This document shows positions 30,298 through 64,000 of a stretch of DNA of 64,000 nt, in pieces. How positions within the stretch are numbered: the stretch's first letter is position 1; every line of letters begins with the position of its first letter. A program made the position numbers and the translations under genes. The notes under the pieces were generated by a model. The model was not told the origin of the DNA and did not search any database. It worked only from the letters and a program-made list of their open reading frames with translations. The stretch is from Escherichia coli (GTDB lineage: Bacteria; Pseudomonadota; Gammaproteobacteria; Enterobacterales; Enterobacteriaceae): the NCBI RefSeq assembly GCF_003019035.1, contig NZ_CP027447.1. One strand, written 5' to 3'.

Positions 30298-30308
30298 AAT
30301 GAGATATT

Positions 30309-35651: not shown

Positions 35652-35722
35652 GAAAAATATCCTCTTTGTTTTGTTAAAAATACATAGCTGGTATAGGTGG
35701 GAGTTAAGACGAAAACGTTGGT

Positions 35723-36184: not shown

Positions 36185-36194
36185 AAACGTTGGT

Positions 36195-36671: not shown

Positions 36672-36677
36672 TTATAC

Positions 36678-37295: not shown

Positions 37296-37819
37296 TAAGT
37301 AGCCCTTACAATATAGTTAAACGCAATATTACGGGGGCGGTTTTCCGTTCCTGTATTCCCTCCGTTGGCACCTAATCTATAAACACCACGAGTGCCAATA
37401 GCACGTAGTGAAGATGGAACTTTTACACCTGACTCATCTGTTTTAACAATCCCGCCATCACCGTATGTAGCCAGTATACCAGGGTTTGTTCCTGCACGGG
37501 TGCTGTTTGCGGCAAGCCCTTCACCAGTCCATAACTCCATATAATGAATATGATCTATAACCGAATGTGATTGTGCATTAAGCAAGGAACGCCCTGAATC
37601 AATTCCCCGCCCGTCATCCCAGCCACGAATAAACTCGCCCCGTAAATCCGGTAATTTATTGGTGGGGTAAGCCTTTGCCAGTTTGGGGTACATTTCAGAA
37701 GAAAATGCTGCACCGTTACATTTCAGCCACCCCGTTGGCGGCGTGGCTGAAGGCCATGGAACGGGCACACCAACGGGCAGCGCCGAGCCTTCCCCTAAAC
37801 CAACGTTTTCATGCGGCTC
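37295..37819 (-). CDS. Tail-fibre C-terminal alternative cassette C (start-less, direct orientation)
   Basis: Frame is open from the stop at 37820-37822; encodes ENVGLGEGSALPVGVPVPW...ENRPRNIAFNYIVRAT; no ATG. Confidence 0.7.
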   Translation of the reverse strand, partial: EPHENVGLGEGSALPVGVPVPWPSATPPTGWLKCNGAAFSSEMYPKLAKAYPTNKLPDLRGEFIRGWDDGRGIDSGRSLLNAQSHSVIDHIHYMELWTGEGLAANSTRAGTNPGILATYGDGGIVKTDESGVKVPSSLRAIGTRGVYRLGANGGNTGTENRPRNIAFNYIVRAT

Positions 37820-38351
37820 TTACGATGTAATTGAATGCAACGTTGCGGGGGCGTGTTTCTGCTGTGCCGACAATACTGGTACTCAGTCCTGTCGCTGTTC
37901 GTTTGTTATTTTTATTCCCTTCGATAAGACAGTTGTAATCGTCATTACCAATTAACGAGTTGGTGGCATCAATACCGTCCGGGGACAAGGCATTAGTTGT
38001 GGAACTTAAAGTCAGCATCTCGTCTGAACTTGGAAGATTTTTTAATGGGGTCTCATTACGTGAAATACCCGCATAAAAAAAGGACTCATGCCTGTGCGCT
38101 TCAAAAGAGTCATCCTGAAGACTTAGCAAGGCACGCCCAGCATCCAAGCCACGTCCATCATCCCAGCCACGGATAAATTCACCCCGTAGATCCGGTAATT
38201 TGTTCGCGGGGTAAGCCTGTGCCAGTTTGGGGTAATCTTCAGAAGAAAATGCTGCGCCGTTGCATTTCAGCCAGCCCGTTGGTGGAGTGGCTGAGGGCCA
38301 CGGAACAGGTACACCAACGGGCAGTGCAGAGCCTTCCCCAAACCAACGTTT
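37809..38351 (-). CDS. Tail-fibre C-terminal alternative cassette D (start-less, direct; G-tract one nt shorter than in the others)
   Basis: Conserved 5' block and RPRNVAFNYIVRAA end; the frame begins directly after the fibre gene's TAG stop; ggtttgggg here versus ggtttggggg in the fibre and cassettes A and B. Confidence 0.65.
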   Translation of the reverse strand, partial: KRWFGEGSALPVGVPVPWPSATPPTGWLKCNGAAFSSEDYPKLAQAYPANKLPDLRGEFIRGWDDGRGLDAGRALLSLQDDSFEAHRHESFFYAGISRNETPLKNLPSSDEMLTLSSTTNALSPDGIDATNSLIGNDDYNCLIEGNKNNKRTATGLSTSIVGTAETRPRNVAFNYIVRAA

Positions 38352-39317
38352 CTATGCTGCTCTCACAATGTAGTTAAAGGCGATGTTGCGTGGACGAGTT
38401 ACATTAAAAAAGGACCCACTTAAAGCAGCTTTGGCACGACCAGCGACGTTACCCAGAATTGCATACCATAAATAATCACTCCTGTAATTCGTTGAAAATG
38501 TTTTATCGCCACCGTAATCAATACTATTTCCGTTACTCATATATGAAATATCAACTGCGGCATCATTGTCATCTCTACCACCAACCAAAGTACCTTTCTG
38601 CCACCCAAGCAACTGGCGACCAGGATCAATCCCGCGCCCGTCATCCCAGCCACGGATAAATTCACCCCGTAAATCCGGTAATTTATTGGTGGGGTAAGCT
38701 TTTGCCAGTTTGGGATACATTTCAGAAGAAAATGCTGCACCGTTACATTTCAGCCAGCCCGTTGGTGGTGTTGCTGAGGGCCACGGAACAGGCACACCAA
38801 CGGGCAGCGCAGAGCCTTCCCCCAAACCAAGGTTTTTGACAAACAGCGCAGGATCAGGAATATCTGCGCCGTTCTGGTCTTTAGCCAGCTTTTCCGCCAG
38901 CTTGTTCAGTACCGTAGTCGCAAAGTTTGGATCATTACCGAGAGCGTCAGCCAGCTCTTTAAGCGTATCCAGTGTCTCAGGGGCGCTGCCTGCAAGCGCC
39001 GCAAGTGCTTTGGCCACAAACTCCGTTGTCGCCAGCTTTTTGCTGTTATCGCCATTTGCAGGTGTAGGTGCTGTTGGTGTGCCGGTGAATGTCGGACTGG
39101 CTTTCTGTGCGTACTGGGTATGCGGGTCTGCTGCCGCGATGTGTTTCGCAAGGTCAGCCCCGCCTTTTTCAACCTGTTGCTTCAGGTACAGCGTGCGGCT
39201 GGCCAGTTGTTTACCCTGACGGTTAGAAATTCCGTCAGGTCCGCCCAGAACGGGGTCAGAGACCTCAATCTGGTAGATGCCGTCTTCCCACTGCGGGGTT
39301 TCGGGTAGATTTGCCAT
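38352..39317 (-). CDS. Tail fibre protein (constant N-terminal part plus the currently fused variable C-terminal part)
   Basis: 321-aa ORF; residues from about 165 onward carry the same conserved block and end as the cassettes. Confidence 0.88.
   Translation of the reverse strand: MANLPETPQWEDGIYQIEVSDPVLGGPDGISNRQGKQLASRTLYLKQQVEKGGADLAKHIAAADPHTQYAQKASPTFTGTPTAPTPANGDNSKKLATTEFVAKALAALAGSAPETLDTLKELADALGNDPNFATTVLNKLAEKLAKDQNGADIPDPALFVKNLGLGEGSALPVGVPVPWPSATPPTGWLKCNGAAFSSEMYPKLAKAYPTNKLPDLRGEFIRGWDDGRGIDPGRQLLGWQKGTLVGGRDDNDAAVDISYMSNGNSIDYGGDKTFSTNYRSDYLWYAILGNVAGRAKAALSGSFFNVTRPRNIAFNYIVRAA
38817..38842. promoter_or_regulatory. Candidate invertase crossover site (hix/gix-like 26-bp imperfect palindrome) at the fibre constant/variable junction
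   Basis: TTCCCCCAAACC-AA-GGTTTTTGACAA; the right half matches the hixL half GGTTTTTGATAA at 11 of 12 positions (consensus recalled from memory); an equivalent GGTTTGGGGGAA half-site starts every cassette. Confidence 0.4.
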
Positions 39318-50160: not shown

Positions 50161-50606
50161 CAGTATTTCTCCAGTAAACCGTCACGACCGCCGAAAGTGG
50201 CCAGGCGGCTGCGTACACGAAACTCGCCAGGCTCAGGCACATCTTTCTGAGTGGACGGCAGCCCCAGCGTGAGCCTGTTATCACGTAACTCCCTGAGTTG
50301 CCGCAGCGCTTCTTTGTGGTCATCCTTCACCGTATCCGGGAGGTCACCTTCCGGGCGGCGGGCGTAGAGCCGGTAACGGACCAGCGTGATGGCAATGTCC
50401 CGCAGAACAGTCGGTATCTCTGCCAGTGGCAGGATATAGCGTCCGCGCAGATGGGCATCAATCAGCTCGTCGGCATAGCGGATACAGCTGTCCACCACAC
50501 GGGTATTCACTGTTGCAGGCGAGTCGAAGTCCATCTCTTCACTGGTGAGCTCGATCAGCGTTCGTTCCGGCACCTGCGCAAGCAAATCCTCCAGGGTGCA
50601 GTACAT
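50160..50606 (-). CDS. Putative head-tail connector protein (Mu gp36-like)
   Basis: Start chosen at MYCTLEDLLAQV to avoid overlap with the upstream ORF; track ORF runs to 50768. Confidence 0.5.
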   Translation of the reverse strand: MYCTLEDLLAQVPERTLIELTSEEMDFDSPATVNTRVVDSCIRYADELIDAHLRGRYILPLAEIPTVLRDIAITLVRYRLYARRPEGDLPDTVKDDHKEALRQLRELRDNRLTLGLPSTQKDVPEPGEFRVRSRLATFGGRDGLLEKY

Positions 50607-50607
50607 G

Positions 50608-50946
50608 TCACACCCCGCGCAGGATACGAATGACGTCGCCTTCACCCCCGGCTTCATCAAGTGCAATACCACAGGATTTACCGTCGCCGGACTGCGGCAC
50701 GGCTCTGGCCTGAGCATCTGACTGAACAGCCACACCACGGCTGACCGCAGCACCGGCCTCAACAGCAATAATGCCCAGAACGCTCACCGGCGTGCTGTCG
50801 CCGGTAACAGCATCCACATCGGCAACCCCGAGCGCTGCGGCACCGGCTTTACAGGGGGTATTATCTGCCCCGACAAAACGCTGCTGTGCCAGTTCTGCCC
50901 CTGCCGTTACGGTTGTAATCAGAATGACCTGCTGAGTGGTTCCCAT
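50608..50946 (-). CDS. Hypothetical head-associated protein
   Basis: 112-aa Ala/Gly/Val-rich ORF directly downstream of the major head gene. Confidence 0.45.
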   Translation of the reverse strand: MGTTQQVILITTVTAGAELAQQRFVGADNTPCKAGAAALGVADVDAVTGDSTPVSVLGIIAVEAGAAVSRGVAVQSDAQARAVPQSGDGKSCGIALDEAGGEGDVIRILRGV

Positions 50947-50955
50947 AACGCCTCC

Positions 50956-51909
50956 TTATTTACTGATACCGGTGATGAGATACCCGGCATCGCCACCAAC
51001 CACGGCGACTTTGTAGATATCGGTATAACGGCAGTACTTCACCTTGCCACCGGCTCCGTCGTATTTGTCAGCAACAGGCATCCCCTTACGACGCAGAGTG
51101 TAGCCGAAGGACGGCTCGTTCTCGTCCGCGCTGTCCGCCCCGGGCTGCGGTTTGCCGACATAGTGCAGCATCAGGTTGTCTCCCCAGATATCCGCCGGCA
51201 CGCTGTTTTTATCCATTGCCGCTTTCATGGATGGCAGGGAAACAGGAGCACCGATGACGATCTCTTCGATCTGAAAGAGGTCCTGCAGGATCTCCGTGGT
51301 GATGCGCTTACGCTCGTTGGCTCCGATGGCTGCCTGAAGTGCTGGATGGAACTTCAGCAGCGCCATCACGCCGGCACCCATGGTCATCAGGTTAGGACGC
51401 AGCCCTGTGGCCGTACGGACCGCTTCCATACCGGCTTCAATCACCCCGATGGGGTCACCCTTACCACCGGCCCAGCGGTCGCCGGACGTCAGTTTTTTGA
51501 CGTGTCCGGTACGGTAGACCTTTTCATCCTGAGCCAGACGGGCAGCGATAAGTTCACGGCGCAGGTTCACGCCATTCGTGGCGCGACGGATGGCCTTGCT
51601 CTCCTCGTTAAACATGGACTCCGCCTGTTCGCGGTAATCCACCGGCGCTGCCAGATCGTGTTCACCCAGCACCAGATCAAGCGTGTCGGTTTTCTCACGG
51701 ACCAGAACATTGCTGTCCGCCCCGACGGCGCGCTCGGTGTCATATTCCACAAAGGCGGTTTTCCCGAAGGTCGGTACACGCACGCCTTCCTTGTCCGTCA
51801 GCACGACGGGGAAAATACGTTCGCCGATGAATGCGGCATTTTTATAGCCACGGGCGATACTGGTCAGTACCGGATCAACGACACGTTTACCTTTTAAGTA
51901 ATCAGACAT
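50956..51909 (-). CDS. Major head subunit (Mu gpT-like)
   Basis: 317-aa ORF downstream of the protease/scaffold gene. Confidence 0.85.
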   Translation of the reverse strand: MSDYLKGKRVVDPVLTSIARGYKNAAFIGERIFPVVLTDKEGVRVPTFGKTAFVEYDTERAVGADSNVLVREKTDTLDLVLGEHDLAAPVDYREQAESMFNEESKAIRRATNGVNLRRELIAARLAQDEKVYRTGHVKKLTSGDRWAGGKGDPIGVIEAGMEAVRTATGLRPNLMTMGAGVMALLKFHPALQAAIGANERKRITTEILQDLFQIEEIVIGAPVSLPSMKAAMDKNSVPADIWGDNLMLHYVGKPQPGADSADENEPSFGYTLRRKGMPVADKYDGAGGKVKYCRYTDIYKVAVVGGDAGYLITGISK

Positions 51910-51923
51910 GATTTCTCCTTAAA

Positions 51924-53039
51924 TTACAGGCAGCGTGCGACAGCAGCCTCATAGCTGATGCCTTCTTTTTTGGACAGGGCCACTGCTTTCTGATGCAGGG
52001 CCAGACGCTCAGGATCGGCTTCCGCAAACTCCGCCACATCCACCTTCACCGTGTCGCCGACACGCTCTTTTGTGGCCTGTTCGGCGAAATTCATCACCGG
52101 CTCCCCGTCGGAGAGCAATGAACGAAAGGCGGTGGCCAGCGGTGTGCGGCTTTCCCCCTCAGCAAACTCCACCGGCTTGTCGCCACCGGCGACGGCATCC
52201 AGCAGGGCAACCACCACGGAGGAGGCGCGGGGAGCCAGACGGCCCTCTGCGACAAGTTTTTCTGCAAAGGCCACATTGTCCTTATGCAGTTGCTCCTGTC
52301 TGACCTGTGCATCACGCGCATCGCGATCAGCAGCCTGCTGCTTCAGGCGGCGGTTCTCCTCCTGAAGGGCTTCAATCTCTTCTTTTGTCATCGATGATTC
52401 CTCGTTACTTGCGGAAGACGGCCCCGGGCCTGTCTCACTGAATTGGGCACCTGCTGCATCCTGCGACAGTGTGTCGCGGTACGCCTCTTCGCGCAGACTG
52501 TTGAGCTGCCATTCCGGCAGGACTTTTTCTGCCTCGTCCAGACTGAAGCGGGCGATCAGAAAATCGCGCAGCTTTCCCCACAGGGAGGCATTCGTGATGG
52601 CCTGCCAGTCGGCGAACTCCACCACACCTTCTTCCTGCTCACTGAAGGACACCTGTTTCAGCCCCTTGACGGAAGGTGGCTGTGCCCCGAGAAAGCCCAC
52701 ATGGCGCAGGTAGAGCACGCCGGGCTTCGGATTGGACGGTGAATCCGGGAGGTAGAAAGAGGCGGACACTTTTTTGAATCGTCCGTCGGTGACCATCTCA
52801 GCAAACTGCGGGTCCAGCTGGGCAGGCTCTGCCATCAGATCGACGCCGCTGAGCGACAGGGCTTTCACCCAGCCCCACGCCGGGTCTTCCGTTCTGGGAT
52901 GACCAATCACGAGTGGTGCTTCATGGACGGACGGGTCATAGGCTTTCACGCAGGCGGCAAGATCGTCTGGCGTGAACGGCAGTTTTTTGCCGTGCATATC
53001 GGTATGAGTACCGGCTTTAAAAATGTGAATGGCTGACAT
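51924..53039 (-). CDS. Head maturation protease / scaffold (Mu gpI-like)
   Basis: 371-aa ORF; N-terminal protease-like domain and C-terminal coiled, charged scaffold-like region. Confidence 0.85.
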   Translation of the reverse strand: MSAIHIFKAGTHTDMHGKKLPFTPDDLAACVKAYDPSVHEAPLVIGHPRTEDPAWGWVKALSLSGVDLMAEPAQLDPQFAEMVTDGRFKKVSASFYLPDSPSNPKPGVLYLRHVGFLGAQPPSVKGLKQVSFSEQEEGVVEFADWQAITNASLWGKLRDFLIARFSLDEAEKVLPEWQLNSLREEAYRDTLSQDAAGAQFSETGPGPSSASNEESSMTKEEIEALQEENRRLKQQAADRDARDAQVRQEQLHKDNVAFAEKLVAEGRLAPRASSVVVALLDAVAGGDKPVEFAEGESRTPLATAFRSLLSDGEPVMNFAEQATKERVGDTVKVDVAEFAEADPERLALHQKAVALSKKEGISYEAAVARCL

Positions 53040-53253
53040 TTTGCTGTCCCGCGTTATGTTGTCGGAGACAGTTTGTGAGAAATGCAGGCCCGGCGATTTT
53101 AATCTGCTTTAGAAAACATCAGGGGAGAAGGACAGGGAAAGCAATGCGGTGAACCGGAAGCGGTTATAAAACAGAGGCTGTAAAGCCTTTATAAAGGTAA
53201 TACAGCCCCTCATTCGCTGGCAATGATAAATCACCCGCCTGAAGAGAGAAAAC

Positions 53254-53712
53254 TCAGCGACGGGCCGCTGATTCAAGATGGCGGACAATGGTATCGAGGA
53301 TGGGGATTACCACTTCAGGCTGTAGTTCTCCATCCCCCGTCACCGGCAGGAACGGGCGGGCCGGAAGTTCAACAGACTCATTACGCCCCGTTTTACCCCC
53401 GAACTGGTGAATGGCACCGTAAACAACGTTGGTCCCCACAACAGCCTGCCGGGCGTCATGGTCGGTTGATACTGACCCCATCAGACGCCCGGTATCCTGC
53501 AGTGTCTGCCCGTCACGTTCTTCCGCTGCCAGCGAGGGCATCCACCCCGGACGCCCCTCATCAAGAAAGTTAAACTGTGTTTCCGCCAGCAGGGTTCCGG
53601 CGATTTTGCGCATCGCGGGCTCCAGGTCTGTGGCAGCAAGATCCAGCGCACGGAGGCTCCGGCGCAGGGATTTATCGTTAATGGTGATACTGACCAGGTT
53701 ATCGGAAGCCAT
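53254..53712 (-). CDS. Virion morphogenesis protein (Mu gpG-like)
   Basis: 152-aa ORF between the F-like and I-like genes. Confidence 0.7.
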   Translation of the reverse strand: MASDNLVSITINDKSLRRSLRALDLAATDLEPAMRKIAGTLLAETQFNFLDEGRPGWMPSLAAEERDGQTLQDTGRLMGSVSTDHDARQAVVGTNVVYGAIHQFGGKTGRNESVELPARPFLPVTGDGELQPEVVIPILDTIVRHLESAARR

Positions 53713-53714
53713 TG

Positions 53715-54536
53715 TTATCCTCTCAGTTCCTGTTGTGCCAGTGGCTGAAGCGTACCCTGATAGCGGGCCAGGTCGGGACGGTATGCTGCCCCCGGTGCAT
53801 AAGACCAGCCGACGTCGGTGGTCACCTTCGTGGTGCCGGTATTAAAGGTGGCCACGTTCCGCATTTCGCCGGTTTTCTCTGAGACCAGTTTCAGTTCCTG
53901 GCCCATGGCAGAGCCGGAGCTGATAACCTTCAGGCCCCGGGCACGTACATCCGCCGCACTCAGGGCAATCACACTACAGCGGCAGCGCCAGCCGTTCGGC
54001 GGGTAAAATGCCTGCCAGAACGGGTCATCCCAGCGCAGCACCAGACCATGCAGCGCCAGATGGCTCCTGCGGGTATGGCTGTCGTTGATGCCGGTATACA
54101 TCCAGTACGGCCTGTCGTCGACGTTTTCCATCTGCTCCGCCCAACGACCGGCGCTGTAGAGTACGGACATATTGGTGCGAAAGATGGTGTCGAGCCGCCA
54201 CGGGCTGCCCTGCTGAATGGTGACCGGCTCACCCGTTACCGGGTCAGTCGTGTCACGTGGTCCCCACCATCCCTTACGCTTCAGCACCGGCTCCAGCTCC
54301 TGCCGGAACCAGCGATCGGTTTTTCCTTCATCGACAGCCTGCTGCAGTGCCCCGCGAATATCTTCCAGAATATCCAGGCGGGTCACTTTAGCGACGGTAA
54401 AGGCGCGGGCATGGGCTTCCTGCCACATTTCTTCCCAGTCCCAGGTAATCTGATACCCTTTGGACTTCAGGTAACTGACTGCCCGCTTCGGGGGAAGCGT
54501 CATGCAGTACGCCAGTTCAGCCGTTGTCACGCTCAT
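53715..54536 (-). CDS. Minor head protein (Mu F-like head morphogenesis)
   Basis: Start chosen at MSVTTAELAY; overlaps the portal gene's 3' end. Confidence 0.8.
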   Translation of the reverse strand: MSVTTAELAYCMTLPPKRAVSYLKSKGYQITWDWEEMWQEAHARAFTVAKVTRLDILEDIRGALQQAVDEGKTDRWFRQELEPVLKRKGWWGPRDTTDPVTGEPVTIQQGSPWRLDTIFRTNMSVLYSAGRWAEQMENVDDRPYWMYTGINDSHTRRSHLALHGLVLRWDDPFWQAFYPPNGWRCRCSVIALSAADVRARGLKVISSGSAMGQELKLVSEKTGEMRNVATFNTGTTKVTTDVGWSYAPGAAYRPDLARYQGTLQPLAQQELRG

Positions 54537-56013
54537 GCAGACGCCCCCGGATATTTGCCACAAAGAGAATGCGGGCCAGCCGCTCCTGCAGATCGTCCGT
54601 GTTCATCTGAGGGTAGAGCTCCGCCAGTTCGCCCAGCAGCTCAGACGGGTTAACCCCGTTTTCGACCCGCTTAAACAGAGGTGCCAGGACGGGTTCCAGC
54701 GTGCCATTTAACACACCTCCGTTCATCAGAATGTCCAGTGCGTCGTCAAGCTGCTGTTGAGCCTGAATATCGGCATCAATCGCCTCGGCAAATGACAGCG
54801 GCAGCATGTTCTTCTCGCGTTCTGACGGTGGTGTCTCGTCAATATCGCCGTCCTGCAGCTGGTACTCACGCTTGAAGTATTGCGGGGTCAGACGCAGACC
54901 CGCCCGGGTGAGTTTTTCGTCGCGGGTGGCACGGGTGTCATCAATGGCCTCCTGTTCCCACATGGCCCAGACCGGACACGGCACATCGCCGAAGTTCAGG
55001 GTGACCACCGTTCTTATGACCTGATTCACTGCCGCCTGAATGATGTCCGCATCCGCATCGCGGATATCAGCCGTCACCTCCAGCCCGGCCTGTGCAGAGG
55101 CCTTGTTACTGTTCGCTTCCGTGGTCTGATTCTGACCGAGTAATGCAATGGAGATCTCACTGCGTGACAGTGTGATCAGCTCGCGGAATACCTCGCTGCT
55201 GTCCGCCTTGCCATCCGCTGCTTTGAGTTCGATACTGCTGTCATCGGGGATGGCGGCCACCGCGTCCTCCACCATCTGCTCCATGGAGTCCAGCAGTTTT
55301 TCAATCTCTGCATCATTTGCACCCCTCGGGTGCTTACCGATCACCCACGGGGAGCCAAACTTTTCGGCAAAGCGGAGCCAGAATTTCATCCCGCCTTTCT
55401 TGAAGGCGACCGGCCAGAAGCACATGGACAGGTCCGGGAAACCGTAAGGATTGTCATAGGATGCATCCTGTGCCGGCACCACGAATTTTGACGGTGACAG
55501 CAGCTCACCCTCCACACCCGCATCACGCGCCCGGAAGCGCAGGCAGTTGTCCGTATCAAACTGGAACCACTCAGGTGGTTTGCCGACAATATCCGTCACC
55601 GCCCACGCCCTGACCGAACGGCCCCACATGATTTCACAGGGCTGATACCCGTAGAGCACGGCATCGCTCATCTCACCGATGATGCGGGACAGATCCAGAT
55701 CGTCGAGCATGTCGCGGATGAAACGGAAGACCCGGGCAGAAGCGTGACCGCGCTCCAGTCCACGCTCCAGCGATTTGAGCGCTGCTTTACGTCTGCGGAT
55801 ACAGCCCCCGACCAGCGGGTCGGTGCGCAGTTCGCGGTAGATACGGATATCCCGTCCCTGAGCCTTGAGAATGGGATCAGGATTGGGCAGATACATGCCC
55901 AGTCCGTAAAAGTCGATCGCGCGGCTGCGGGAGGCAATCTGCGCGGTCAGTGATTTCTGAGGCTCAGAAAAAGCAACAAATTCATCGGGTGAAACCCAGA
56001 TACCCCTCGCCAT
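54517..56013 (-). CDS. Portal protein (Mu gp29-like, DUF935-type)
   Basis: 498-aa ORF immediately after the large terminase gene. Confidence 0.85.
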   Translation of the reverse strand: MARGIWVSPDEFVAFSEPQKSLTAQIASRSRAIDFYGLGMYLPNPDPILKAQGRDIRIYRELRTDPLVGGCIRRRKAALKSLERGLERGHASARVFRFIRDMLDDLDLSRIIGEMSDAVLYGYQPCEIMWGRSVRAWAVTDIVGKPPEWFQFDTDNCLRFRARDAGVEGELLSPSKFVVPAQDASYDNPYGFPDLSMCFWPVAFKKGGMKFWLRFAEKFGSPWVIGKHPRGANDAEIEKLLDSMEQMVEDAVAAIPDDSSIELKAADGKADSSEVFRELITLSRSEISIALLGQNQTTEANSNKASAQAGLEVTADIRDADADIIQAAVNQVIRTVVTLNFGDVPCPVWAMWEQEAIDDTRATRDEKLTRAGLRLTPQYFKREYQLQDGDIDETPPSEREKNMLPLSFAEAIDADIQAQQQLDDALDILMNGGVLNGTLEPVLAPLFKRVENGVNPSELLGELAELYPQMNTDDLQERLARILFVANIRGRLHERDNG

Positions 56014-57329
56014 CAGAATCCCTCCAGTATATGACCAGCCTCACGGCGGTGACGCGAACGGGCCATCACCGGCCCTGACGGTCCGTCAGTGGCGTTTATT
56101 GCCAGAAAACAGGCCCATGTGCGGTCGGCGTGACCTGCTGCATCACTTTCGGCCACAAAGCGGGGAGTTCCGGTAGGCCCGGTAACCTTGCGAAGTTTAT
56201 GCAGATCACTGCGCAGGACCACATCTCCCGCCGGAATACGCAGGCGGCGGTCCTCAAACATCTCCCTGCCACGGGTCGCGAGGGTGAGCTTGTTCGGGCT
56301 GTTAAATATCACCCCCTCCACACGGCTTCTGCCATGGCGACCCTGTGCATCCTCCACCGGCTTTTCTCCCATCCCGGTCTGATCCATACAGCAGCGCAGC
56401 ACGCGGTAACGGAAAAATACGTCATCCAGCAAAGCATCCTGCTCAGCAAAGGTGGCCCGTTTACGGGTGATGATTTCCCGGGTCCAGTAGACATCCCCCA
56501 CCTGTTCAAGCACCCAGATGACAAACAGGTCATTACGAACAGCAATATCCACCCCCACAAAGCAGGGGCCACCCGTATAGTGCACCGGCAGCCCGGCAGC
56601 ATCGTGCTCCACGCCGTCAATCAGTTCAAACGTCAGCCAGGCCGATGCCTCATCCAGCCACTTCAGTTCAAACTCCTGTGCCCAGGCGTCATCATCGTTG
56701 AGCGCCTGTCGCATCTGTGCAATATCCCGCGGCAGACCATCACGCACGGCACGGTAAATATCCACGATGTGACGTGACCAGACATTTTCAAGGGCGTTGC
56801 TGGTCATCAGTTCATAAAACTTGTTTCCCTTGCCGTTCGGTGTCGATGTCACACGCAGTCTGTAGCCGTTGGAAATGACCGGAAACAGAGCGGTCCAGAT
56901 TTTGCGACTGTCGGCATGGAAGGCGAACTCATCCAGAAAGACGTTAGCCGCAAACCCACGAGCCGTGTCGGGATTCGCCGGCAGGGCCGTGATACGGGAG
57001 CCGCCGGGTAACTCCACCTCAAGCATGGTGTAGCGTTCGCCGCTTTCAGCACGGTAATAACTTTCCACCTCACGGGCCGCCATCCGGTAGGCGCTGCAGT
57101 GTTTTTTCACCCCCTCCACCATGGCTTCTTTTGCCTGACGCTCCCCGCGCGAGAGGATCACCCAGCGTGTACGTCCCCCTGAGGCCTCCGTTTCAAAACA
57201 GTCATCAACCAGTTCCAGCGTGGTGGTGAACGTCTTGCCCGTCTGACGGGCAAACATACCAATCTTGAAACGGGCACGATCCAGAAACCACGACTGCTGA
57301 TAGGGATACAGCTGAATGGCCGCTGTCAT
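56013..57329 (-). CDS. Terminase large subunit
   Basis: 438-aa ORF with Walker A-like ARQTGKT near the N-terminus and a C-terminal nuclease-like domain. Confidence 0.88.
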   Translation of the reverse strand: MTAAIQLYPYQQSWFLDRARFKIGMFARQTGKTFTTTLELVDDCFETEASGGRTRWVILSRGERQAKEAMVEGVKKHCSAYRMAAREVESYYRAESGERYTMLEVELPGGSRITALPANPDTARGFAANVFLDEFAFHADSRKIWTALFPVISNGYRLRVTSTPNGKGNKFYELMTSNALENVWSRHIVDIYRAVRDGLPRDIAQMRQALNDDDAWAQEFELKWLDEASAWLTFELIDGVEHDAAGLPVHYTGGPCFVGVDIAVRNDLFVIWVLEQVGDVYWTREIITRKRATFAEQDALLDDVFFRYRVLRCCMDQTGMGEKPVEDAQGRHGRSRVEGVIFNSPNKLTLATRGREMFEDRRLRIPAGDVVLRSDLHKLRKVTGPTGTPRFVAESDAAGHADRTWACFLAINATDGPSGPVMARSRHRREAGHILEGF

Positions 57330-57880
57330 GAGATCACCCCGTAAATCTGTTCCCGCACCATCTTCAGGGTTTCCAGACTCAGGCGGGTGTCGCCGGACTT
57401 CGCCTGTTTTTCCAGAGCATTCATCCGCGCCTCAATTTTTGCCAGCACCTCGGCCCGGAATCGCTTGTGGGTCACCGAAGCCCGTACCAGTGTGGCTATA
57501 CTTTCCGAAGCAGTGGCCAGCAGTTTTGCGCGTTTTGCAGGATCATCACTTTCCCCGATTTCCTGCAGACGCATCAGAACATCCAGCATCTCGGTCTGAA
57601 TCAGTGCCATCATCCCGGCAGAACGATCGTCCGCCTCGTCACCGGCTTCCTGCGCCATCAGACGCGCGGCCTCGGTGGCGGCGCGGATGCGGGCCAGTTG
57701 TCGCTCCATTTTGTAGCCAAACCGCTGCAGGGAAGAGCGGGTGATGACGTATCCCTTCTCCTTCAGCAGGGCTTCCAGCCGGGCATATCCACTGAAGTTA
57801 TTCTCCGTCAGTGCCCGCTCCAGCCAGCGGCGGACCTCCGTCGGCAGAGAATCAATGCTGCTGCGACGTCCCATAATCAC
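57326..57880 (-). CDS. Putative terminase small subunit (Mu gp27-like)
   Basis: 184-aa ORF whose stop overlaps the large terminase start. Confidence 0.65.
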   Translation of the reverse strand: MIMGRRSSIDSLPTEVRRWLERALTENNFSGYARLEALLKEKGYVITRSSLQRFGYKMERQLARIRAATEAARLMAQEAGDEADDRSAGMMALIQTEMLDVLMRLQEIGESDDPAKRAKLLATASESIATLVRASVTHKRFRAEVLAKIEARMNALEKQAKSGDTRLSLETLKMVREQIYGVIS

Positions 57881-58188
57881 TCACTCCAGTATTTTTCCGG
57901 GCGGGCAATACCCGGGCCGCATTCCACGGTGTATTCCACAATATCCACACCAAGGCGACTCAGATCGGCAAACCAGTCACCGGACGGTCTCTTCTCCAGC
58001 TCCACCATTTTGCGATCTGCCAGATAATCAAGCTCCCGGCGCAGCTCCAGTTGCGTGGTGTCCGGGTAGATGGCACGGGACACGTCCAGCAGCAACGTTT
58101 CGCTGGCGGTGTAAGGGCGGGTTTTGTTCAGGGCAACCAGCAGACTCCAGCGCAGGGATTCGCGGCGTACCCGGGTAATATCGACCAT
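57877..58188 (-). CDS. Hypothetical protein (Mu gp26 position)
   Basis: 103-aa ORF. Confidence 0.4.
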   Translation of the reverse strand: MVDITRVRRESLRWSLLVALNKTRPYTASETLLLDVSRAIYPDTTQLELRRELDYLADRKMVELEKRPSGDWFADLSRLGVDIVEYTVECGPGIARPEKYWSE

Positions 58189-58514
58189 TATTGACCTCCG
58201 GTATTGCGGTACTGCTGTACCACTTCCAGTTTGTTGTAAAGTGCGTCCAGTTTGGCCTCGATGACTGTCTGGCCACGGATATAATCCTCGCGACGGACAT
58301 AATTCAGCGGTAAATCCGCTTTAAATCGCATAAATTCCTTTTCCAGCTCGCCCCAGTTGGAGGCGGACTGTTGCAGGGCCTGTTCAAGGGAGGCGAATCG
58401 TGCCGCCTGGCGTTCTTCTGTTTTACTGAACAACCATTTGGCGAGCCCTCCAACAAACCCCATGAAGGTGAGCAGAAAACTCACCACCGTCCAGAATTCA
58501 ACCTGCAGTGTCAT
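58188..58514 (-). CDS. Hypothetical membrane protein (Mu gp25 position)
   Basis: 108-aa ORF with one N-terminal TM helix. Confidence 0.4.
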   Translation of the reverse strand: MTLQVEFWTVVSFLLTFMGFVGGLAKWLFSKTEERQAARFASLEQALQQSASNWGELEKEFMRFKADLPLNYVRREDYIRGQTVIEAKLDALYNKLEVVQQYRNTGGQ

Positions 58515-59164
58515 TTCTGTAATCCTTCCCGTTCATCCAGCAGCGCGTTTATCTGGTTTCGCCAGCGACGACATTGCCCTGCGTTGTCGATGATGTTGGC
58601 GAGGACGTCACGCTGGGAGACACCCGAATTGCGTAACCGGGCGTCAGCGGTTTCAGGTTGCCCGGTCGCTGCGCCAGTGCCGGTGCCAGCGGCGGCAGTT
58701 GCGTCTGAATGACCGGTGTCGACGGATGCGTTGTCATACCCGAGTGCGGCGTTGTACTGGCGCACGAAACCGCGAGTAAACACGCACTCAATGGGATGGC
58801 TCTTACCTTTTTCATCAATCCAGCGCTGTGTGACATCGTTAATTTGCCCCTGTAGTTGTTTGTTCAGGCTCTCCAGTTGAGCAATCTGCTCAAGATAACC
58901 GGCTTCAGCCCGCTGCCCGGCGGCCACCTGCTCCTGATACCGTTTTGCCCATGCTCGCAACGCAGCGTTCTCAAGCATTGCCTGCTCCGTTTTGTATGTG
59001 TCGAATGCTGACTGCAACTCACTGATCGCCTTATCGCCGTCGCGCGTGGCGTTTTCATGCCCGCTTTTGTAGCCCAGGTAATAAAGTCCAATCAGAAAAG
59101 CATTTATGAGCACAGCCAGCAGCAGACTGCGCCACGGCAGATTTTTTAGCAGGTTAGTCCACAC
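58511..59164 (-). CDS. Rz-like inner-membrane spanin
   Basis: 217-aa ORF with an N-terminal TM helix and coiled-coil periplasmic region; contains an embedded +1-frame lipoprotein ORF. Confidence 0.65.
   Translation of the reverse strand: MWTNLLKNLPWRSLLLAVLINAFLIGLYYLGYKSGHENATRDGDKAISELQSAFDTYKTEQAMLENAALRAWAKRYQEQVAAGQRAEAGYLEQIAQLESLNKQLQGQINDVTQRWIDEKGKSHPIECVFTRGFVRQYNAALGYDNASVDTGHSDATAAAGTGTGAATGQPETADARLRNSGVSQRDVLANIIDNAGQCRRWRNQINALLDEREGLQK
58549..58815 (-). CDS. Rz1-like outer-membrane lipoprotein spanin, embedded in the Rz-like gene
   Basis: MKKVRAIPLSACLLAVSC signal/lipobox followed by a Pro-rich sequence; ATG at 58813-58815 checked by hand. Confidence 0.6.
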   Translation of the reverse strand: MKKVRAIPLSACLLAVSCASTTPHSGMTTHPSTPVIQTQLPPLAPALAQRPGNLKPLTPGYAIRVSPSVTSSPTSSTTQGNVVAGETR

Positions 59165-59882
59165 AGCTGCCGCCCCCCCATGTCAGATAACGGGGGGCCA
59201 GTTCGTGCAGGATGCGCTGCGGATAATGGCGGTTCTCCCGCCAGCTGGCAGCATTGCGTCCGGCATTCACCGTGGCGACATGCCCGAACCAGCGGGTACT
59301 GTCCAGGCCTTTCTGTGATGCTAGCTGCCTGTCCCGTTGTACCCAGCCCAGACCACCGTTATAGCCCGACAGTGTCATGGCCATACGTTCGCAGTCACTG
59401 GCGGCGCTGACGCGCTGCCACAGCCAGCGGTCATAGCTGACCAGCGCCCGGATGGCCCATGCCGGATTAAACGGCTCACGGCTGTTAAGCCCCGGCATCA
59501 GCTGACTTATCCAGTCAGCAGTGGCGGGCATGAACTGCGCCAGTCCCTGAGCGCCAGCCGGCGAGACCGCATCAGGTCGCCAGCCGCTTTCCTGATGCAG
59601 TTGCGCAGCGAAATCGGCCACCGGCGCAGACAGTCCCCATTCAAGCCGGGCATTACGGATCACATCATCGCGATACTGCAGCGCAGCCTGCGGAGGCTGC
59701 GCTGCGCGGGCCTGACTGAAGAAGCCGCCACACCAGAGCAGCCAGACAATCACCAGGTTGCCAGCAAGCTGCCACCAGAAGCTGTATTTATCGTTACGTG
59801 GTTCTCCGTGTCTGATGGCGGTTACGCCCAGACCAAAGGCGAACAGAATAATGAGGGTGATTTGAGGCCAGTTCATGGTCAC
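59154..59882 (-). CDS. Lytic transglycosylase (SLT-domain) endolysin with N-terminal hydrophobic segments
   Basis: 242-aa ORF; SLT catalytic region LHQESGW...GLAQFMPAT; two N-terminal hydrophobic stretches. Confidence 0.8.
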   Translation of the reverse strand: MTMNWPQITLIILFAFGLGVTAIRHGEPRNDKYSFWWQLAGNLVIVWLLWCGGFFSQARAAQPPQAALQYRDDVIRNARLEWGLSAPVADFAAQLHQESGWRPDAVSPAGAQGLAQFMPATADWISQLMPGLNSREPFNPAWAIRALVSYDRWLWQRVSAASDCERMAMTLSGYNGGLGWVQRDRQLASQKGLDSTRWFGHVATVNAGRNAASWRENRHYPQRILHELAPRYLTWGGGSCVD

Positions 59883-60262
59883 AGTCCTGTTGCCACAGCC
59901 AGACAGACCGCTGCAACAATCAGTGCACGGCGGATTAACGCAGCAGAAAATACAAGGTGAAGGCCGGTCTGCACAGGGAAACGCCCTTCAGCCATCAGCC
60001 TGTCTTCATGTTTCAGGTACTGACCGGGACGGGCTTTGGGGAAGAGTGAACGGTCAAGCCAGTAACCCAGCACTGCTGCCAGCGTGATGAGTGCCAGCTT
60101 GTAGATCACAACAGGCAGCTGCTGTGGCGAGACCAGAGCGATGGTGCCCAGCAACAGCACTGAGGTCAGCAGCCAGCCGCTGAGGCGAGGTTTTTTAACA
60201 GGGGGAATGAATTTTTTCAGGTTTTTCATGTGTGTCTCCTTGTCTGGTGGAGACAGCATCAC
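59879..60262 (-). CDS. Putative holin / lysis-associated membrane protein
   Basis: 127-aa ORF with about 3 predicted TM helices, first gene of the lysis cluster. Confidence 0.45.
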   Translation of the reverse strand: MMLSPPDKETHMKNLKKFIPPVKKPRLSGWLLTSVLLLGTIALVSPQQLPVVIYKLALITLAAVLGYWLDRSLFPKARPGQYLKHEDRLMAEGRFPVQTGLHLVFSAALIRRALIVAAVCLAVATGL

Positions 60263-60359
60263 AAATACAGGGCGCGAAGGATTTTAAAGCGCGTTAAGAG
60301 AGCCGGGGATACGGGATGTGCAGGATAAACGATGAATTATTCACAGAGGAGAATACGAT

Positions 60360-60785
60360 ATGACGCAGACACTGAATCCGGTCATCACTGTCACCGTGTC
60401 CGGTCCTGTGGGCAGCGGTAAAAGTTACGTACTGGCGCGGATAGAAGAGATGGTGAAACAGGAACCCGGAAACAGCGTCATTGTCGATGCTGCTGACGTG
60501 GAGAATGAGCGCCGTATGAGTGGGGATGATCTGAGCACATGGCAGAAACCACAGGCAGGTACAATTATCCGACTGGAAGAATACACTGAGCGGGTAACTC
60601 TATCATATAGTGAGGAGCGCATTTGCCTGACGAATGCACTGCTGGAAGTTATATGTCCCGAAGGCAAGAGCCCCTGGATACTACCCGATGCTGTACATGC
60701 CGCAATTGCTGCATTGTTCGTATTATACGATCAGGAGCTGGTTTTAATGGAGTTATGTAAGGTTATTAAAGCTACAGAAAAGTAA
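60360..60785 (+). CDS. Small P-loop (Walker A GPVGSGKS) protein, hypothetical
   Basis: 141-aa plus-strand ORF with a good Shine-Dalgarno (gaggag); oriented opposite to the late operon. Confidence 0.5.
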   Translation: MTQTLNPVITVTVSGPVGSGKSYVLARIEEMVKQEPGNSVIVDAADVENERRMSGDDLSTWQKPQAGTIIRLEEYTERVTLSYSEERICLTNALLEVICPEGKSPWILPDAVHAAIAALFVLYDQELVLMELCKVIKATEK

Positions 60786-60860
60786 AAATATTATCGGTAT
60801 CCTGTGGATGATAAAAACACGCTACCCACAGGATTACTTGTATAAAACCGTGGATAACAA

Positions 60861-61355
60861 CTAGATAAAACCATCATAGAAGTCATCCCTCTTACGAGAC
60901 CTGATACGAACTGGATTTGGCTCTCCTTTCAACCATACAGCACTGTTTTGACCACAAACCGGACACATGCAAAAACTGTCTTTTCGTATATGCAGGATAC
61001 TTTTCAGGTTTTTGGAATCAAAACAAGTCTGGCAAATATAATGTTCAGTTTCATCGTTTCCCGTATAACGATAAGCATAGAAGCCTTTTTCTTCACTCAG
61101 TAACGTCAGTTTATAATTACCGCGAAAGTTAAGAAGGTCTTCCAGAGAGCGAATTTTCTCTTCCAGATTGGTAATGGTTTTTTGCTGTTCTCCTAGCTTG
61201 CTCGTTACCTCAAAGAACTGCCCCTGTGCTTCAATAATTTTACTCTGTAATTCACTGGTCAAAGCGGCCTGTTTTATTTGATCACGCTCTTTTATTATTT
61301 TCTGAGCAGTACTGCTGATATAGCCAAGAGCTGTTAATAAAGCGTTTGTATCCAT
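60861..61355 (-). CDS. Hypothetical coiled-coil protein with C-terminal Cys4 zinc-ribbon-like motif
   Basis: Start chosen at MDTNALLTALGY; ends CQTCF...CMCPVCG; sits in a visibly AT-rich stretch (about 60800-61400). Confidence 0.5.
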   Translation of the reverse strand: MDTNALLTALGYISSTAQKIIKERDQIKQAALTSELQSKIIEAQGQFFEVTSKLGEQQKTITNLEEKIRSLEDLLNFRGNYKLTLLSEEKGFYAYRYTGNDETEHYICQTCFDSKNLKSILHIRKDSFCMCPVCGQNSAVWLKGEPNPVRIRSRKRDDFYDGFI

Positions 61356-61557
61356 AGCACCCCGATATCCTCTAAACCACATTAACAGAAATCACTTCAT
61401 CCCTGCCGCATCATGAAAGAACGACCAGCCCGGCACCCGAAAGCCGGGCTGGTCATCGTCCCACAGGAATGCACTGTGAGCCGACCGAGGTTCAGTCAGT
61501 CTCGCGAGACCAGACTAGCCTGCCATATTTTTAATAATTGTAAAAGGCTTACAGATT

Positions 61558-62322
61558 ATGAAAATGCAGTCATTACCCATCGTTCCATGGATTGGTGGCA
61601 AACGCCGCCTTGCAAAACACATTCTGCCGCTGTTTCCGGCGCATGAATGTTATGTGGAGCCGTTTTGTGGGGCAGCAGCGCTCTATTTTCTTAAGACACC
61701 CGGCAAGATCGAAGTCATTAATGATATCAACGGTGAACTGGTGAATCTGTACCGGGTGGTAAAGCATCACCTGGAAGAATTTGTCCACCAGTTCAAATGG
61801 GCGCTGGTCAGCCGTCAGATCTACAAGTGGCTGCAGATCACCCCGGAAGAAACACTGACGGATATCCAGCGTGCAGCACGGTTCTACTACCTCCAGAAGC
61901 AGGCGTTTGGCGGCAAGGTAGCAGAACACAGCTTCGGTACCTCCACCACATCCCCGCCACGCTTCAACCTGCTGCGTATTGAAGAAGAACTGTCAGCGGC
62001 ACACCTGCGACTTTCCAGAACAGTCATAGAACACATGGACTGGCAACAGTGCATTGAGCGCTATGATCGTCCGCACACGCTGTTCTACTGTGATCCGCCG
62101 TATCTGGGTACGGAAGGCTATGGTGTGGATTTTCCTGAAGGGAACTACTCGCGGCTGGCAGAGCTGGCCCGGTGCATCAGAGGAAAAATGATAATTTCGG
62201 TGAACGACATCCCGCAGATGCGCGAGGTGTTCACTGGACTGAACATACAGACAGTGAATATCAACTACAGTCTGGCGGGGAAACCCACGCCGCGCCGTGA
62301 ACTGATAATCTGCAACTTCTGA
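61558..62322 (+). CDS. DNA adenine methyltransferase (Dam / D12 class N6-adenine MTase)
   Basis: 254-aa ORF with an N-terminal AdoMet-binding region and the DPPY catalytic motif (YCDPPYLGTEGYG). Confidence 0.85.
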   Translation: MKMQSLPIVPWIGGKRRLAKHILPLFPAHECYVEPFCGAAALYFLKTPGKIEVINDINGELVNLYRVVKHHLEEFVHQFKWALVSRQIYKWLQITPEETLTDIQRAARFYYLQKQAFGGKVAEHSFGTSTTSPPRFNLLRIEEELSAAHLRLSRTVIEHMDWQQCIERYDRPHTLFYCDPPYLGTEGYGVDFPEGNYSRLAELARCIRGKMIISVNDIPQMREVFTGLNIQTVNINYSLAGKPTPRRELIICNF

Positions 62323-62329
62323 AACAGAA

Positions 62330-62352
62330 CCGGAAAGCACAATGCTTTCCGG
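62330..62352. terminator. Perfect 10-bp stem hairpin between the convergent methylase and repressor genes
   Basis: ccggaaagca-caa-tgctttccgg; no strong T-tract. Confidence 0.4.
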
Positions 62353-62438
62353 TAAATCAGCCCATTCCTGCCATGCTACTGACGGCGCTTTCTGAAAGCG
62401 TCCAGATCAACCACCTGTCCTTTGTGTCCGGGTCAGAA

Positions 62439-62786
62439 TCAGCCTGTAAATTTACTTGGTTTGGGTTGAGTATAGAATCGCCCAACCTCAAGAAATGAGC
62501 GTCGTTGTTCCGGAGTCATTTCATCAAATGCGTCCATTAATTTTTGTTTTTCTGGTGACATTTTTGGGACAACATTGGTCATTACATCCCCTCTCTGTCC
62601 TGTAACAACGTAAAGCACGTCAAGCCCTAAAGTAGCCCAAATTGCCAAAGCATCTGCTCCGGGAGCGGATTCATCCTTTTCCCACCGCAATTGGCTTTTA
62701 TAGGATGCCCCCACCAATTCAGCAAACTCAGACTGACTAAATCCTAGGCGGTTTCGTTCTTCTTTTAATCGTGAGCCAAGTGACAT
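62439..62786 (-). CDS. HTH (XRE-family) phage repressor-like protein
   Basis: Start preferred at MSLGSRLKEERNRLGFSQSEFAELVGASYKSQLRWE; divergent from a Cro/Ner-like gene. Confidence 0.7.
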   Translation of the reverse strand: MSLGSRLKEERNRLGFSQSEFAELVGASYKSQLRWEKDESAPGADALAIWATLGLDVLYVVTGQRGDVMTNVVPKMSPEKQKLMDAFDEMTPEQRRSFLEVGRFYTQPKPSKFTG

Positions 62787-62878
62787 TTTTGTCCAATACC
62801 TATTTACATGTCCCATTTTTGGGATAATAATCTAACATATATAGAGCAAACATCATTGCGTTAATAAAGGAGGCAACA
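62787..62878. promoter_or_regulatory. Divergent promoter/operator region of the putative lysogeny switch
   Basis: 92-bp AT-rich gap between the divergent HTH genes, with a strong Shine-Dalgarno (aaggagg) for the plus-strand gene. Confidence 0.4.
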
Positions 62879-63067
62879 ATGACTGCAGAGCAGGTCAAAG
62901 CCCATTTCCGCCGCAACGGAATCACCTTTACCCAGTGGGCAAAACAGAACAACTACACCCGAGCAGAGGTTTACCGCGTACTGAATGGACAGGTAAAAGC
63001 GAACTATGGCAAAGCCCATGAAATCGCCGTCAAGCTGGGATTAAAAACCATCACTGACGCCGCTTAA
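62879..63067 (+). CDS. Small DNA-binding protein, Ner/Cro-like
   Basis: 62-aa basic ORF with an HTH-like segment, divergent from the repressor. Confidence 0.55.
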   Translation: MTAEQVKAHFRRNGITFTQWAKQNNYTRAEVYRVLNGQVKANYGKAHEIAVKLGLKTITDAA

Positions 63068-63113
63068 AAAGATACAGCATGCGAAAAAGATTATCACATA
63101 TTGAAAAAGAGGT

Positions 63114-63428
63114 ATGCAGATGAGTAAGACGAATGTTTCAAGCTCCGGCAGTCGTATCCTCCGGGTACTCAAAGCGCTGCGCGGTCATGCCCTGAACGGT
63201 ATTTCCAACGGTGAACTGGCAGCAGCACTGCACGAGTCACCGGCAAACATCAACCGGGCACTCAACACCCTCATTGAAGAAGGGCTGGCCCTGAAACTGG
63301 AGAATGGACGTTTTGCTCCTGGCATCCAGTTACTGCAGATCGCCATGGCTCACAGTAACGAGATGGCACGAGCGCAGGATCGTATTAACGAAATCAACCA
63401 ACGTGTCATTTCAGGTAGTCGTTTGTAA
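63114..63428 (+). CDS. Hypothetical early protein with N-terminal winged-HTH-like segment
   Basis: 104-aa ORF (SRILRVLKALRGHALNGISNGELAAAL). Confidence 0.4.
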   Translation: MQMSKTNVSSSGSRILRVLKALRGHALNGISNGELAAALHESPANINRALNTLIEEGLALKLENGRFAPGIQLLQIAMAHSNEMARAQDRINEINQRVISGSRL

Positions 63429-63438
63429 GGAGTAATCA

Positions 63439-64000
63439 ATGGGACGCACTAAATCACCAATGACCACAGATCTGAATGCTGAGGTGCCGCTTTCTGATGA
63501 TCTCAACGTCAGCCTGAATACCATGACACAGCATCGTATGGAGATCATGCAGCAGTTCGGCGACGGCCTGCCCTATGAACGTAATCGCATCGTTCACGAA
63601 GCTCGGTTTTATATGGACCAGAGTGCGGAGGCTATGCTGGAGGCAGGTAAACGTTTGGTTATCCTGAAGGAAAATGAACCTCATGGAGAATACGTACAAA
63701 TCGTCAAAGAACAGTTGAACCTTGAGCCACGCATAGCCCAAAAAATGGCCCAAGCTGCTCTGAAGTTTTTATCTCCAGAGCTGACATCAAAAGCGAAAAC
63801 GTTTTCGCATTTGGGAAGATCAAAACTGTACGAATTGATGTTAGAGGATGATGAAGACCTTGCCGAACTGGCCGACGGTGGCACAGTTGCCGGCCTGACG
63901 CTTGACGACGTTGATCGCATGTCAGTACGTGAATTGCGTCAGTCTCTTCGCGAAGCCCGCGAAACCAACGCAGCACAACAGCGCGTACTCGCCGACAAAA
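63439..64000 (+). CDS. Hypothetical early protein (3' end lies outside the window)
   Basis: ATG at 63439 preceded by aaggag; frame open to the window end; absent from the ORF track because there is no stop. Confidence 0.4.
   Translation, partial: MGRTKSPMTTDLNAEVPLSDDLNVSLNTMTQHRMEIMQQFGDGLPYERNRIVHEARFYMDQSAEAMLEAGKRLVILKENEPHGEYVQIVKEQLNLEPRIAQKMAQAALKFLSPELTSKAKTFSHLGRSKLYELMLEDDEDLAELADGGTVAGLTLDDVDRMSVRELRQSLREARETNAAQQRVLADK

Follow-up and report, generated by a model that had tools for sequence, protein, structure and literature searches.

Which kind of prophage occupies the right-hand part of this Escherichia coli sequence, and how is its lysogeny controlled? The window, a stretch of 64,000 nt from contig NZ_CP027447.1 (GCF_003019035.1), ends in a divergent pair of regulatory genes and two further plus-strand ORFs that head away from a minus-strand late operon. 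A preliminary description had set this arrangement apart from that of phage Mu, likened it to the divergent early/late layout of BcepMu-type transposable phages and expected a transposase beyond 64000. Our results indicate that the stretch from 35001 to about 72270 is very probably an apparently intact transposable prophage of the BcepMu/B3 type, with two gene clusters diverging from a central control region. This reading is built on gene content, order and orientation, on homology with BcepMu, on the ends of the element and on the insertion of its relatives at many sites. The divergent early/late architecture is already known for the BcepMu/B3 group, and the element belongs with the enterobacterial BcepMu-like transposable prophages, a kind of which many members are already known. 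Its exact sequence is already present in public assemblies.

Lysogeny switch and first early genes

Six-frame ORF listing and reading of the sequence confirmed the presence of all four ORFs described for the region 62439-64000:

62439-62816, minus strand: repressor ORF of 125 aa, or of 115 aa from the ATG at 62786
62879-63067, plus strand: first early gene, encoding a 62-aa HTH protein (phrog_925 'HTH DNA binding protein', E=2e-31)
63114-63428, plus strand: IclR-like winged-helix protein of 102-104 aa (Pfam HTH_IclR, E=3e-6; phrog_1368, E=9e-45)
63439 to beyond 64000, plus strand: 5' part of a DUF3102 gene, 187 of 303 codons (Pfam DUF3102; phrog_1748, E=1e-85)

BLASTP against Burkholderia phage BcepMu (AY539836) matched the repressor ORF to gp17 (36% identity, E=6e-10), the 62-aa protein to gp16 (48%, E=5e-16), and identified the IclR-like and DUF3102 proteins as homologues of gp12 (34%, E=2e-14) and gp10 (39% over 299 aa). 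The four genes stand in the same order and relative orientation as their BcepMu counterparts, bearing out the proposed BcepMu-type divergent layout, and 32 ORFs of the window are collinear with gp10-gp52. Judged by the profile matches, the four ORFs are real conserved phage genes and chance ORFs are excluded.

Pfam matches of the repressor ORF to HTH_3 and HTH_31 were weak and under their cutoffs, whilst PHROG transcriptional repressor/regulator families were matched at E=1e-12. Homology to gp17 and the N-terminal HTH together identify 62439-62816 as the predicted immunity repressor. The protein is probably 115 aa long, starting at 62786, as a start at 62816 (125 aa) would extend the gene into the predicted early promoter. 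The shorter start is also supported by exact-protein look-ups, in which the 115-aa reading found contigs and the 125-aa reading found no match. Contigs were likewise found with a 141-aa ORF to the left of the switch, and none with a neighbouring 173-aa ORF. The public sequence collection lists the exact 115-aa repressor in 1686 blocks, and PGAP annotates the repressor of E. coli A20 at 115 aa. The 62-aa protein is, by homology, the counterpart of gp16 and, by position, a Ner/Cro analogue. Its earlier designation as 'Ner-Cro-like' holds for position only: BLASTP did not match the protein to Mu Ner.

The early operon beyond 64000 and the ends of the element

Relatives of the element were collected by megablast (PhiKM, E. 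coli chromosomes) and by exact-protein look-ups, the latter giving about 30 loci. One of these, L020 (GCA_025065395.1), is 100% identical to window positions 50360-64000 over 13,641 nt. The genes given here past 64000 were taken from L020 and not read in the source genome itself. The plus strand of L020 continues with the rest of the DUF3102 gene, to window-equivalent 64350, followed by a 593-aa rve transposase at window-equivalent 64354-66135, which starts 354 nt past the end of the window. In L020 the expected transposase is thus present beyond 64000 and on the plus strand, and gene orientation in the window and in L020 shows the early genes running opposite to the late operon, as had been proposed. 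After the transposase come a 388-aa AAA+ ATPase, an 89-aa ORF, Gam, several small ORFs, DUF2786, GemA and Mor.

The only Pfam match of the transposase was rve, whilst the ATPase matched AAA_22 and Gam matched Phage_Mu_Gam. Identity to BcepMu was 68% for the transposase (gp09), 59% for the ATPase (gp08), 44% for GemA (gp02) and 56% for Mor (gp01). Through L020, the element thus has the gp09-type (Tn552/IS1604) rve transposase and gp08-type ATPase of the BcepMu group. A tblastn search of 50,697 phage records with the transposase returned BcepMu-like (about 69%) and B3-like (about 57%) phages and did not return Mu. Gene order was the same across the approximately 30 loci, in which the only transposase lies downstream of the switch on the plus strand.

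Shortly past 64000, where the window ends, the early operon could be broken, leaving a truncated or rearranged remnant in which the switch has no working transposase. Disrupted early genes do occur among the relatives: L003 and L010 carry, for example, a split DUF3102, ATPase or GemA gene. By contrast, L020, L022 and L023, the loci nearest to the window (99.5-100% identical over its last 13.6 kb), have an uninterrupted early operon, and all window ORFs are intact and full length relative to BcepMu. A remnant is accordingly very unlikely, and we proceed with the reading of an intact prophage.

The left boundary was placed by comparison with other E. coli genomes. Positions 28000-35000 are host chromosome (dtpA, gstA, pdxY, tyrS, pdxH, mliC and anmK), a stretch that 5425 of 5426 complete genomes share. 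At about 35001-35004 the homology to E. coli genomes ends, with the last host base on the anmK side at 35000, and strain SCU-301 has the empty site, the anmK-slyB intergenic region. The prophage therefore extends from 35001 to beyond the end of the window. The prophage was found at the anmK-slyB site in no complete E. coli RefSeq genome. The end itself reads as follows:

35001-35060: left end of the prophage, 5'-TGATGCGCCGCGCGATAAACG...CGTGAGATAAAT, with a TG terminus

This stretch holds repeats of the GATAAA(T/C)G type, which are candidate transposase-binding sites. The window (at 35001) and E. coli A20 share the left end 5'-TGATGCGCCGCGCGATAAA beside unrelated host DNA. At the other extremity, the right ends of 24 relatives read ...CATTTATCTCA(T/C)GTC(TGAT/CCTT)CA and then pass into a different host sequence in each. 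The host flanks differ in essentially every relative's locus, amounting to more than 20 different chromosomal sites, and in A20 a 6-bp target duplication, TGCCGG, was seen (a single example). The TG...CA ends together with the differing host flanks indicate transposition rather than site-specific integration.

Locus L025, which is 100% identical to the L020 tail, has its right end at window-equivalent ~72271. The element is thus about 37.3 kb long (35001 to ~72270, the part past 64000 taken from identical relatives), and the switch lies about 9.4 kb from its right end and 27.8 kb from its left. If the operon is intact in the source genome, the right end of the window's element would read ...TCTGATCA (TGATCA), followed by an AATCAA repeat and slyB.

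At first sight, the cI/cro-like divergent pair and the P2-like tail look lambdoid or P2-like, as they would in a non-transposing temperate phage in which an ordinary cI/cro pair is followed by replication genes and integration is site-specific. Against such a phage stand the rve DDE transposase, AAA+ partner, Gam and Mor of the element. Neither a tyrosine nor a large serine integrase occurs, the sole recombinase being a small Gin-type invertase beside the fibre cassettes. The relatives have TG...CA termini at more than 20 different host sites, and the insertion in this genome is intergenic rather than in a tRNA or att-type site. A site-specific-integrase phage has next to no probability and was rejected, as it is already contradicted by the transposase genes, the ends and the varied sites. 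The reading as a transposable prophage stands.

The late operon, the accessory segment and the tail-fibre end

Leftward of the switch, the remaining features of the element are:

61558-62322, plus strand: D12-class Dam methyltransferase (Pfam MethyltransfD12, E=3e-29)
60861-61382, minus strand: 173-aa ORF of the accessory segment
60360-60785, plus strand: 141-aa ORF of the accessory segment
60360-62322: variable accessory segment between the late operon and the switch
38352-60262, minus strand: late operon, reading leftward from the centre of the element
35713-38835: multi-cassette invertible tail-fibre region
36678-37295, minus strand: tail-fibre assembly gene
35079-35651, minus strand: serine DNA invertase (Gin/Pin-like), 190 aa from an internal ATG

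The late operon encodes a holin (Pfam Holin_2-3, E=1.5e-40), an SLT endolysin, a spanin-like gene, the small and large terminase, a Mu-type portal, Mu F and G, a protease/scaffold, the capsid, a P2-type tail and baseplate, and a tail fibre. The minus strand carries the whole set of lysis, head and tail genes, which extends from the holin (59879-60262) to the tail fibre (38352-39317). BLASTP placed 28 late ORFs collinear with BcepMu gp21-gp52 at 24-78% amino-acid identity, and the combination of a Mu-type head and terminase with a P2-type tail, collinear over gp27-gp52, is that of the BcepMu group. The preliminary description was correct in assigning the late genes to the minus strand. As a refinement to it, the switch does not adjoin them directly, as the accessory segment of 2.2 kb separates the two. 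The content of this segment varies among relatives; PHROG matches in it were to phrog_3787 and phrog_1244.

At the left end, the invertase matched Pfam Resolvase (E=3.6e-51) and HTH_7 (E=2e-13), and its counterpart in A20 is a 573-bp gene annotated as a recombinase. The adjoining region holds five alternative fibre C-terminal cassettes, three on the minus and two on the plus strand, and five gix-like crossover sites, CCCAAACCAACGTTT. This layout was read from Pfam Collar and Caudo_TAP domains, long inverted repeats and the cassette translations. The element is mildly unusual only in points apart from the main finding, namely its invertible region of five fibre cassettes, its Mu-type Gam and its central Dam methylase.

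The two ends bear on whether the element could be collinear in the manner of Mu, with 62439-64000 as an internal regulatory module and the true c-ner-A-B genes on the minus strand at the other end. In Mu (AF083977), every annotated CDS lies on one strand save c, in agreement with the preliminary description. Nothing speaks positively for such a layout in our element, although resemblance to Mu is seen in many head genes (Portal_Mu, Phage_Mu_F) and in Gam (63% identity to the Mu protein). The other end, at 35001, holds the invertase and tail-fibre cassettes, without a transposase and without a Mu-type ner-A-B, and the sole transposase of all relatives is downstream of the switch on the plus strand. 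Compared by BLASTP with Mu c, Ner, A and B, neither the transposase and ATPase nor the repressor and 62-aa protein gave a match at E<0.05. A Mu-type collinear layout is refuted by the gene map and was rejected; we give it a vanishingly small probability. Two marks of Muvirus, a left-end c-ner-A-B with genes in one direction and a MuA-family transposase with a Ner-family regulator, are accordingly absent, and the switch is internal. Further marks of the BcepMu group were found instead: divergent clusters with the gp17/gp16 pair at their interface (62439-63067), and TG...CA termini at many unrelated sites. The group is also marked by virion DNA that carries variable host sequence at its two ends, a hallmark of replicative transposition; the present analysis covered prophage sequences.

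Predicted control sequences and relation to known phages

The predicted control elements of the switch and of the late operon are:

62803-62831, plus strand: predicted early promoter Pe, TTTACA / 17-nt spacer / AATAAT
62811-62824: candidate operator O1, palindrome TCCCA-TTTT-TGGGA within the Pe spacer, read from the sequence
62781-62792: candidate operator, related palindrome GACA-TTTT-TGTC over the start codon of the 115-aa repressor
62556-62568: candidate operator, third related palindrome GACATTTTTGGGA
62329-62353: candidate terminator, hairpin ACCGGAAAGCA-TTG-TGCTTTCCGGT in the gap where the dam and repressor genes converge
60230-60359, minus strand: intergenic region upstream of the holin gene, putative Mor-dependent late promoter

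The Pe site is the best promoter-like site of the region, with 10 of 12 matches. Generic scans of the region for sigma-70 promoters and terminators returned no more than in shuffled sequence, and such matches were used only jointly with comparative conservation. The 150 nt upstream of the 62-aa gene were aligned across four immunity types, which proved conserved from the -10 onward and unrelated upstream of it. At the Pe position, the three other types have a consensus-like -35, a 17-18-nt spacer and (A/C)ATAAT. Each type thus keeps a -35 at 17-18-nt spacing in otherwise unrelated sequence. This gives good comparative support to the prediction of an early promoter, Pe, whose -35 and spacer would be covered by operators specific to each immunity type. 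Three of the seven copies of the CATTTTTG motif in the 64-kb window are clustered within 263 bp at the switch. Window-wide, the motif is not over-represented (7 copies against 4.65 expected), and only this local clustering is notable.

The call of a terminator at 62329-62353 is only suggestive, as pattern matches of this kind are no commoner than in shuffled sequence. Rfam found no RNA family in window positions 34000-64000. The candidate late promoter has a TAAAAT -10, no -35 match and, 18 nt upstream, a ATCCCCGG box similar to the CCATAACCCC boxes found at Mu C-dependent promoters (AF083977). That Mor acts upstream of the holin gene is a guess from this resemblance; a search for a late-promoter motif shared upstream of holin by this element and BcepMu found only a weak TTAAAA similarity.

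We propose the following course of regulation. In the lysogen, the repressor (62439-62786) would bind the palindromic operators through their CATTTTTG core. Two of these overlap the -35 and spacer of Pe and the repressor's own start codon, so that binding would shut Pe. On derepression, Pe would drive a single rightward early operon, ending near the right end of the element and comprising the 62-aa HTH protein (the Ner/Cro analogue), the IclR-like wHTH protein, DUF3102, the rve DDE transposase, the AAA+ target-DNA ATPase (a presumed MuB analogue), Gam, several small genes, GemA and Mor. The transposase would then act on the TG...CA ends in replicative transposition. Mor, as the last early product, would switch on the late promoter that lacks a -35 match (~60230-60359), which would drive the leftward operon of lysis, head, tail, tail-fibre and invertase genes to the left end.

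The closest known systems include BcepMu (Bcepmuvirus) and phiE255. The BcepMu genome comprises two clusters, genes 1-13 on the bottom strand with regulators and transposase, and genes 17-52 on the top strand, with lysogeny control (genes 16 and 17) at their interface (PMC2771037). The layout invoked in the preliminary description matches this account. The BcepMu transposase belongs to the Tn552-IS1604 family and is unrelated to MuA, and the phage has P2-like tails and terminal CA dinucleotides (PMC2771037). Our element shares with BcepMu an early operon that runs gp16, gp12, gp10, gp09 transposase and gp08 ATPase and closes with GemA and Mor, the late cluster of holin, SLT, terminase, Mu-type head and P2-type tail, and the TG...CA termini. 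At only 24-78% amino-acid identity, it is by sequence a distant enterobacterial lineage. Unlike BcepMu, it has a Mu-type Gam in place of SSB and HU genes, a central Dam methylase and other accessory genes, and, at the late end where BcepMu has an acyltransferase, five tail-fibre cassettes with a Gin-like invertase. BcepMu was reported without a tail-fibre inversion system (PMC2771037).

Escherichia phage PhiKM (PQ738613) and the BcepMu-like prophages of E. coli (strains A20 and ABU 83972, for example) belong to the same lineage as our element, with 88-97% nucleotide identity over the region and the same gene order. They differ in the accessory genes between holin and dam, in carrying several different immunity (repressor/operator) alleles and in their insertion sites. 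Pseudomonas phage B3 and the B3-like transposable siphoviruses share a homologous transposase (57%) and the inverted early operon. Relative to Mu, the B3-like organisation has its early-gene operon inverted, and the two encode different transposition proteins (PMC5977238). B3 is a siphovirus (PMC2771037, PMC5977238), whereas our element has a P2-type contractile-tail module with sheath and tube homologues of BcepMu gp39 and gp40. Mu resembles the element in being transposable with TG...CA ends, in its homologous Gam, GemA, Mor/C, portal, F and G head genes and in a Gin-type invertase beside the tail-fibre genes at the late end. The Mu switch lies at the left end beside A and B, in contrast to the internal switch and inverted early operon of our element, which also lacks a mom gene.

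The genus Bcepmuvirus, in the strict ICTV sense, requires about 70% nucleotide identity across the genome. Given protein identities of 24-78%, our element is unlikely to reach 70% nucleotide identity to BcepMu. Its close relative PhiKM is placed in Bcepmuvirus by the NCBI taxonomy. We think it improbable, though not negligibly so, that the enterobacterial BcepMu branch is a distinct variant lacking a proper description, marked by the inverted BcepMu/B3-type early operon and transposase, a Mu-type Gam with a five-cassette Gin-like invertase, and a three-palindrome switch. In that variant, the palindrome 225-255 bp from the other two would permit repressor looping. If its switch were also a transposition enhancer, as the Mu operators are, it would have to act over far longer distances, 9-28 kb to the ends.

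The region thus holds the immunity switch and predicted early promoter of a family of transposable prophages that is widespread in E. coli, and the value of recognising it lies mainly in correct annotation: assignment to the BcepMu/B3 type rather than the Mu type indicates where the transposase, Mor and the ends of the element should be sought. The swappable immunity alleles and the conserved -10 region of Pe could also aid prophage typing or the construction of inducible derivatives.

Immunity alleles and accessory genes

Comparison of positions 62560-62827 with four related loci from public contigs (L003, L027, L028 and L029) identified this interval as an immunity-swap hot spot. Homology among the relatives breaks exactly over the part of the repressor gene encoding the N-terminal HTH and over the -35 element and spacer of the inferred early promoter, Pe. 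Identity remains at 83-97% across the C-terminal part of the repressor, the -10 element of Pe, the 5' leader and the 62-aa first early gene. There are at least four repressor/operator alleles, with called lengths of 112-153 aa that vary by assembly. Alongside some of these alleles, dam is replaced by an extra Flk_N-like gene of 328 aa.

Set against related loci L002-L018, the accessory segment at 60360-61557 is mosaic. Its 141-aa ORF (60360-60785) is a truncated phrog_3787 protein, covering profile positions 1-136 of 242, whilst most relatives carry a 247-aa protein. In the window, the 134-aa and 71-aa genes of relatives with the 247-aa protein are replaced by a 173-aa ORF (60861-61382, minus strand) assigned to phrog_1244, with an additional weak RING-finger-like match.

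In L020, a contig identical to the window over 50360-64000, a Gam gene lies at 17253-17783, equivalent to window positions 67612-68142. Mu Gam is 63% identical to the Gam of this lineage. By contrast, BcepMu has no Gam counterpart, and SSB and HU genes occupy the corresponding part of its early operon. The presence of a Mu-like Gam without a BcepMu counterpart suggests that enterobacterial phages of the Mu and BcepMu types have exchanged modules of the early region.

Insertion site and target duplication

The prophage interrupts the 274 bp of intergenic DNA that separate anmK from slyB, two divergent host genes (window 34996-35001; 8490-8510 in the compared locus L036). The insertion point lies 115 nt upstream of the start codon of anmK. 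The upstream regions of the two genes are therefore separated, and expression of both could be altered. No complete RefSeq E. coli genome carries a prophage at this site. In E. coli A20, the sole complete relative examined, the related prophage is flanked by a 6-bp target-site duplication, TGCCGG (L002 27256-27275, L035 6114-6125). This single example differs from the 5-bp duplication of Mu.

Invertase and tail-fibre cassettes

A multiple-inversion tail-fibre region with an invertase gene occupies the late end of the prophage (35079-38835) and contains five alternative fibre C-terminal cassettes.

Features of the late-end inversion region
35079-35651, minus strand, serine invertase, Gin/Pin-like
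35723-36184, plus strand, fibre cassette
36195-36671, plus strand, fibre cassette
36678-37295, minus strand, tail-fibre assembly gene (one copy)
37295-37768, minus strand, fibre cassette
37809-38147, minus strand, fibre cassette
38352-38835, minus strand, fibre cassette, at present joined to the expressed fibre gene

A gix-like site, CCCAAACCAACGTTT, stands before every cassette; three of these sites are oriented one way and two the other. A tail-fibre inversion system is reported to be absent from BcepMu (PMC2771037). In E. coli A20, the tail-fibre region is arranged differently from that of the window.
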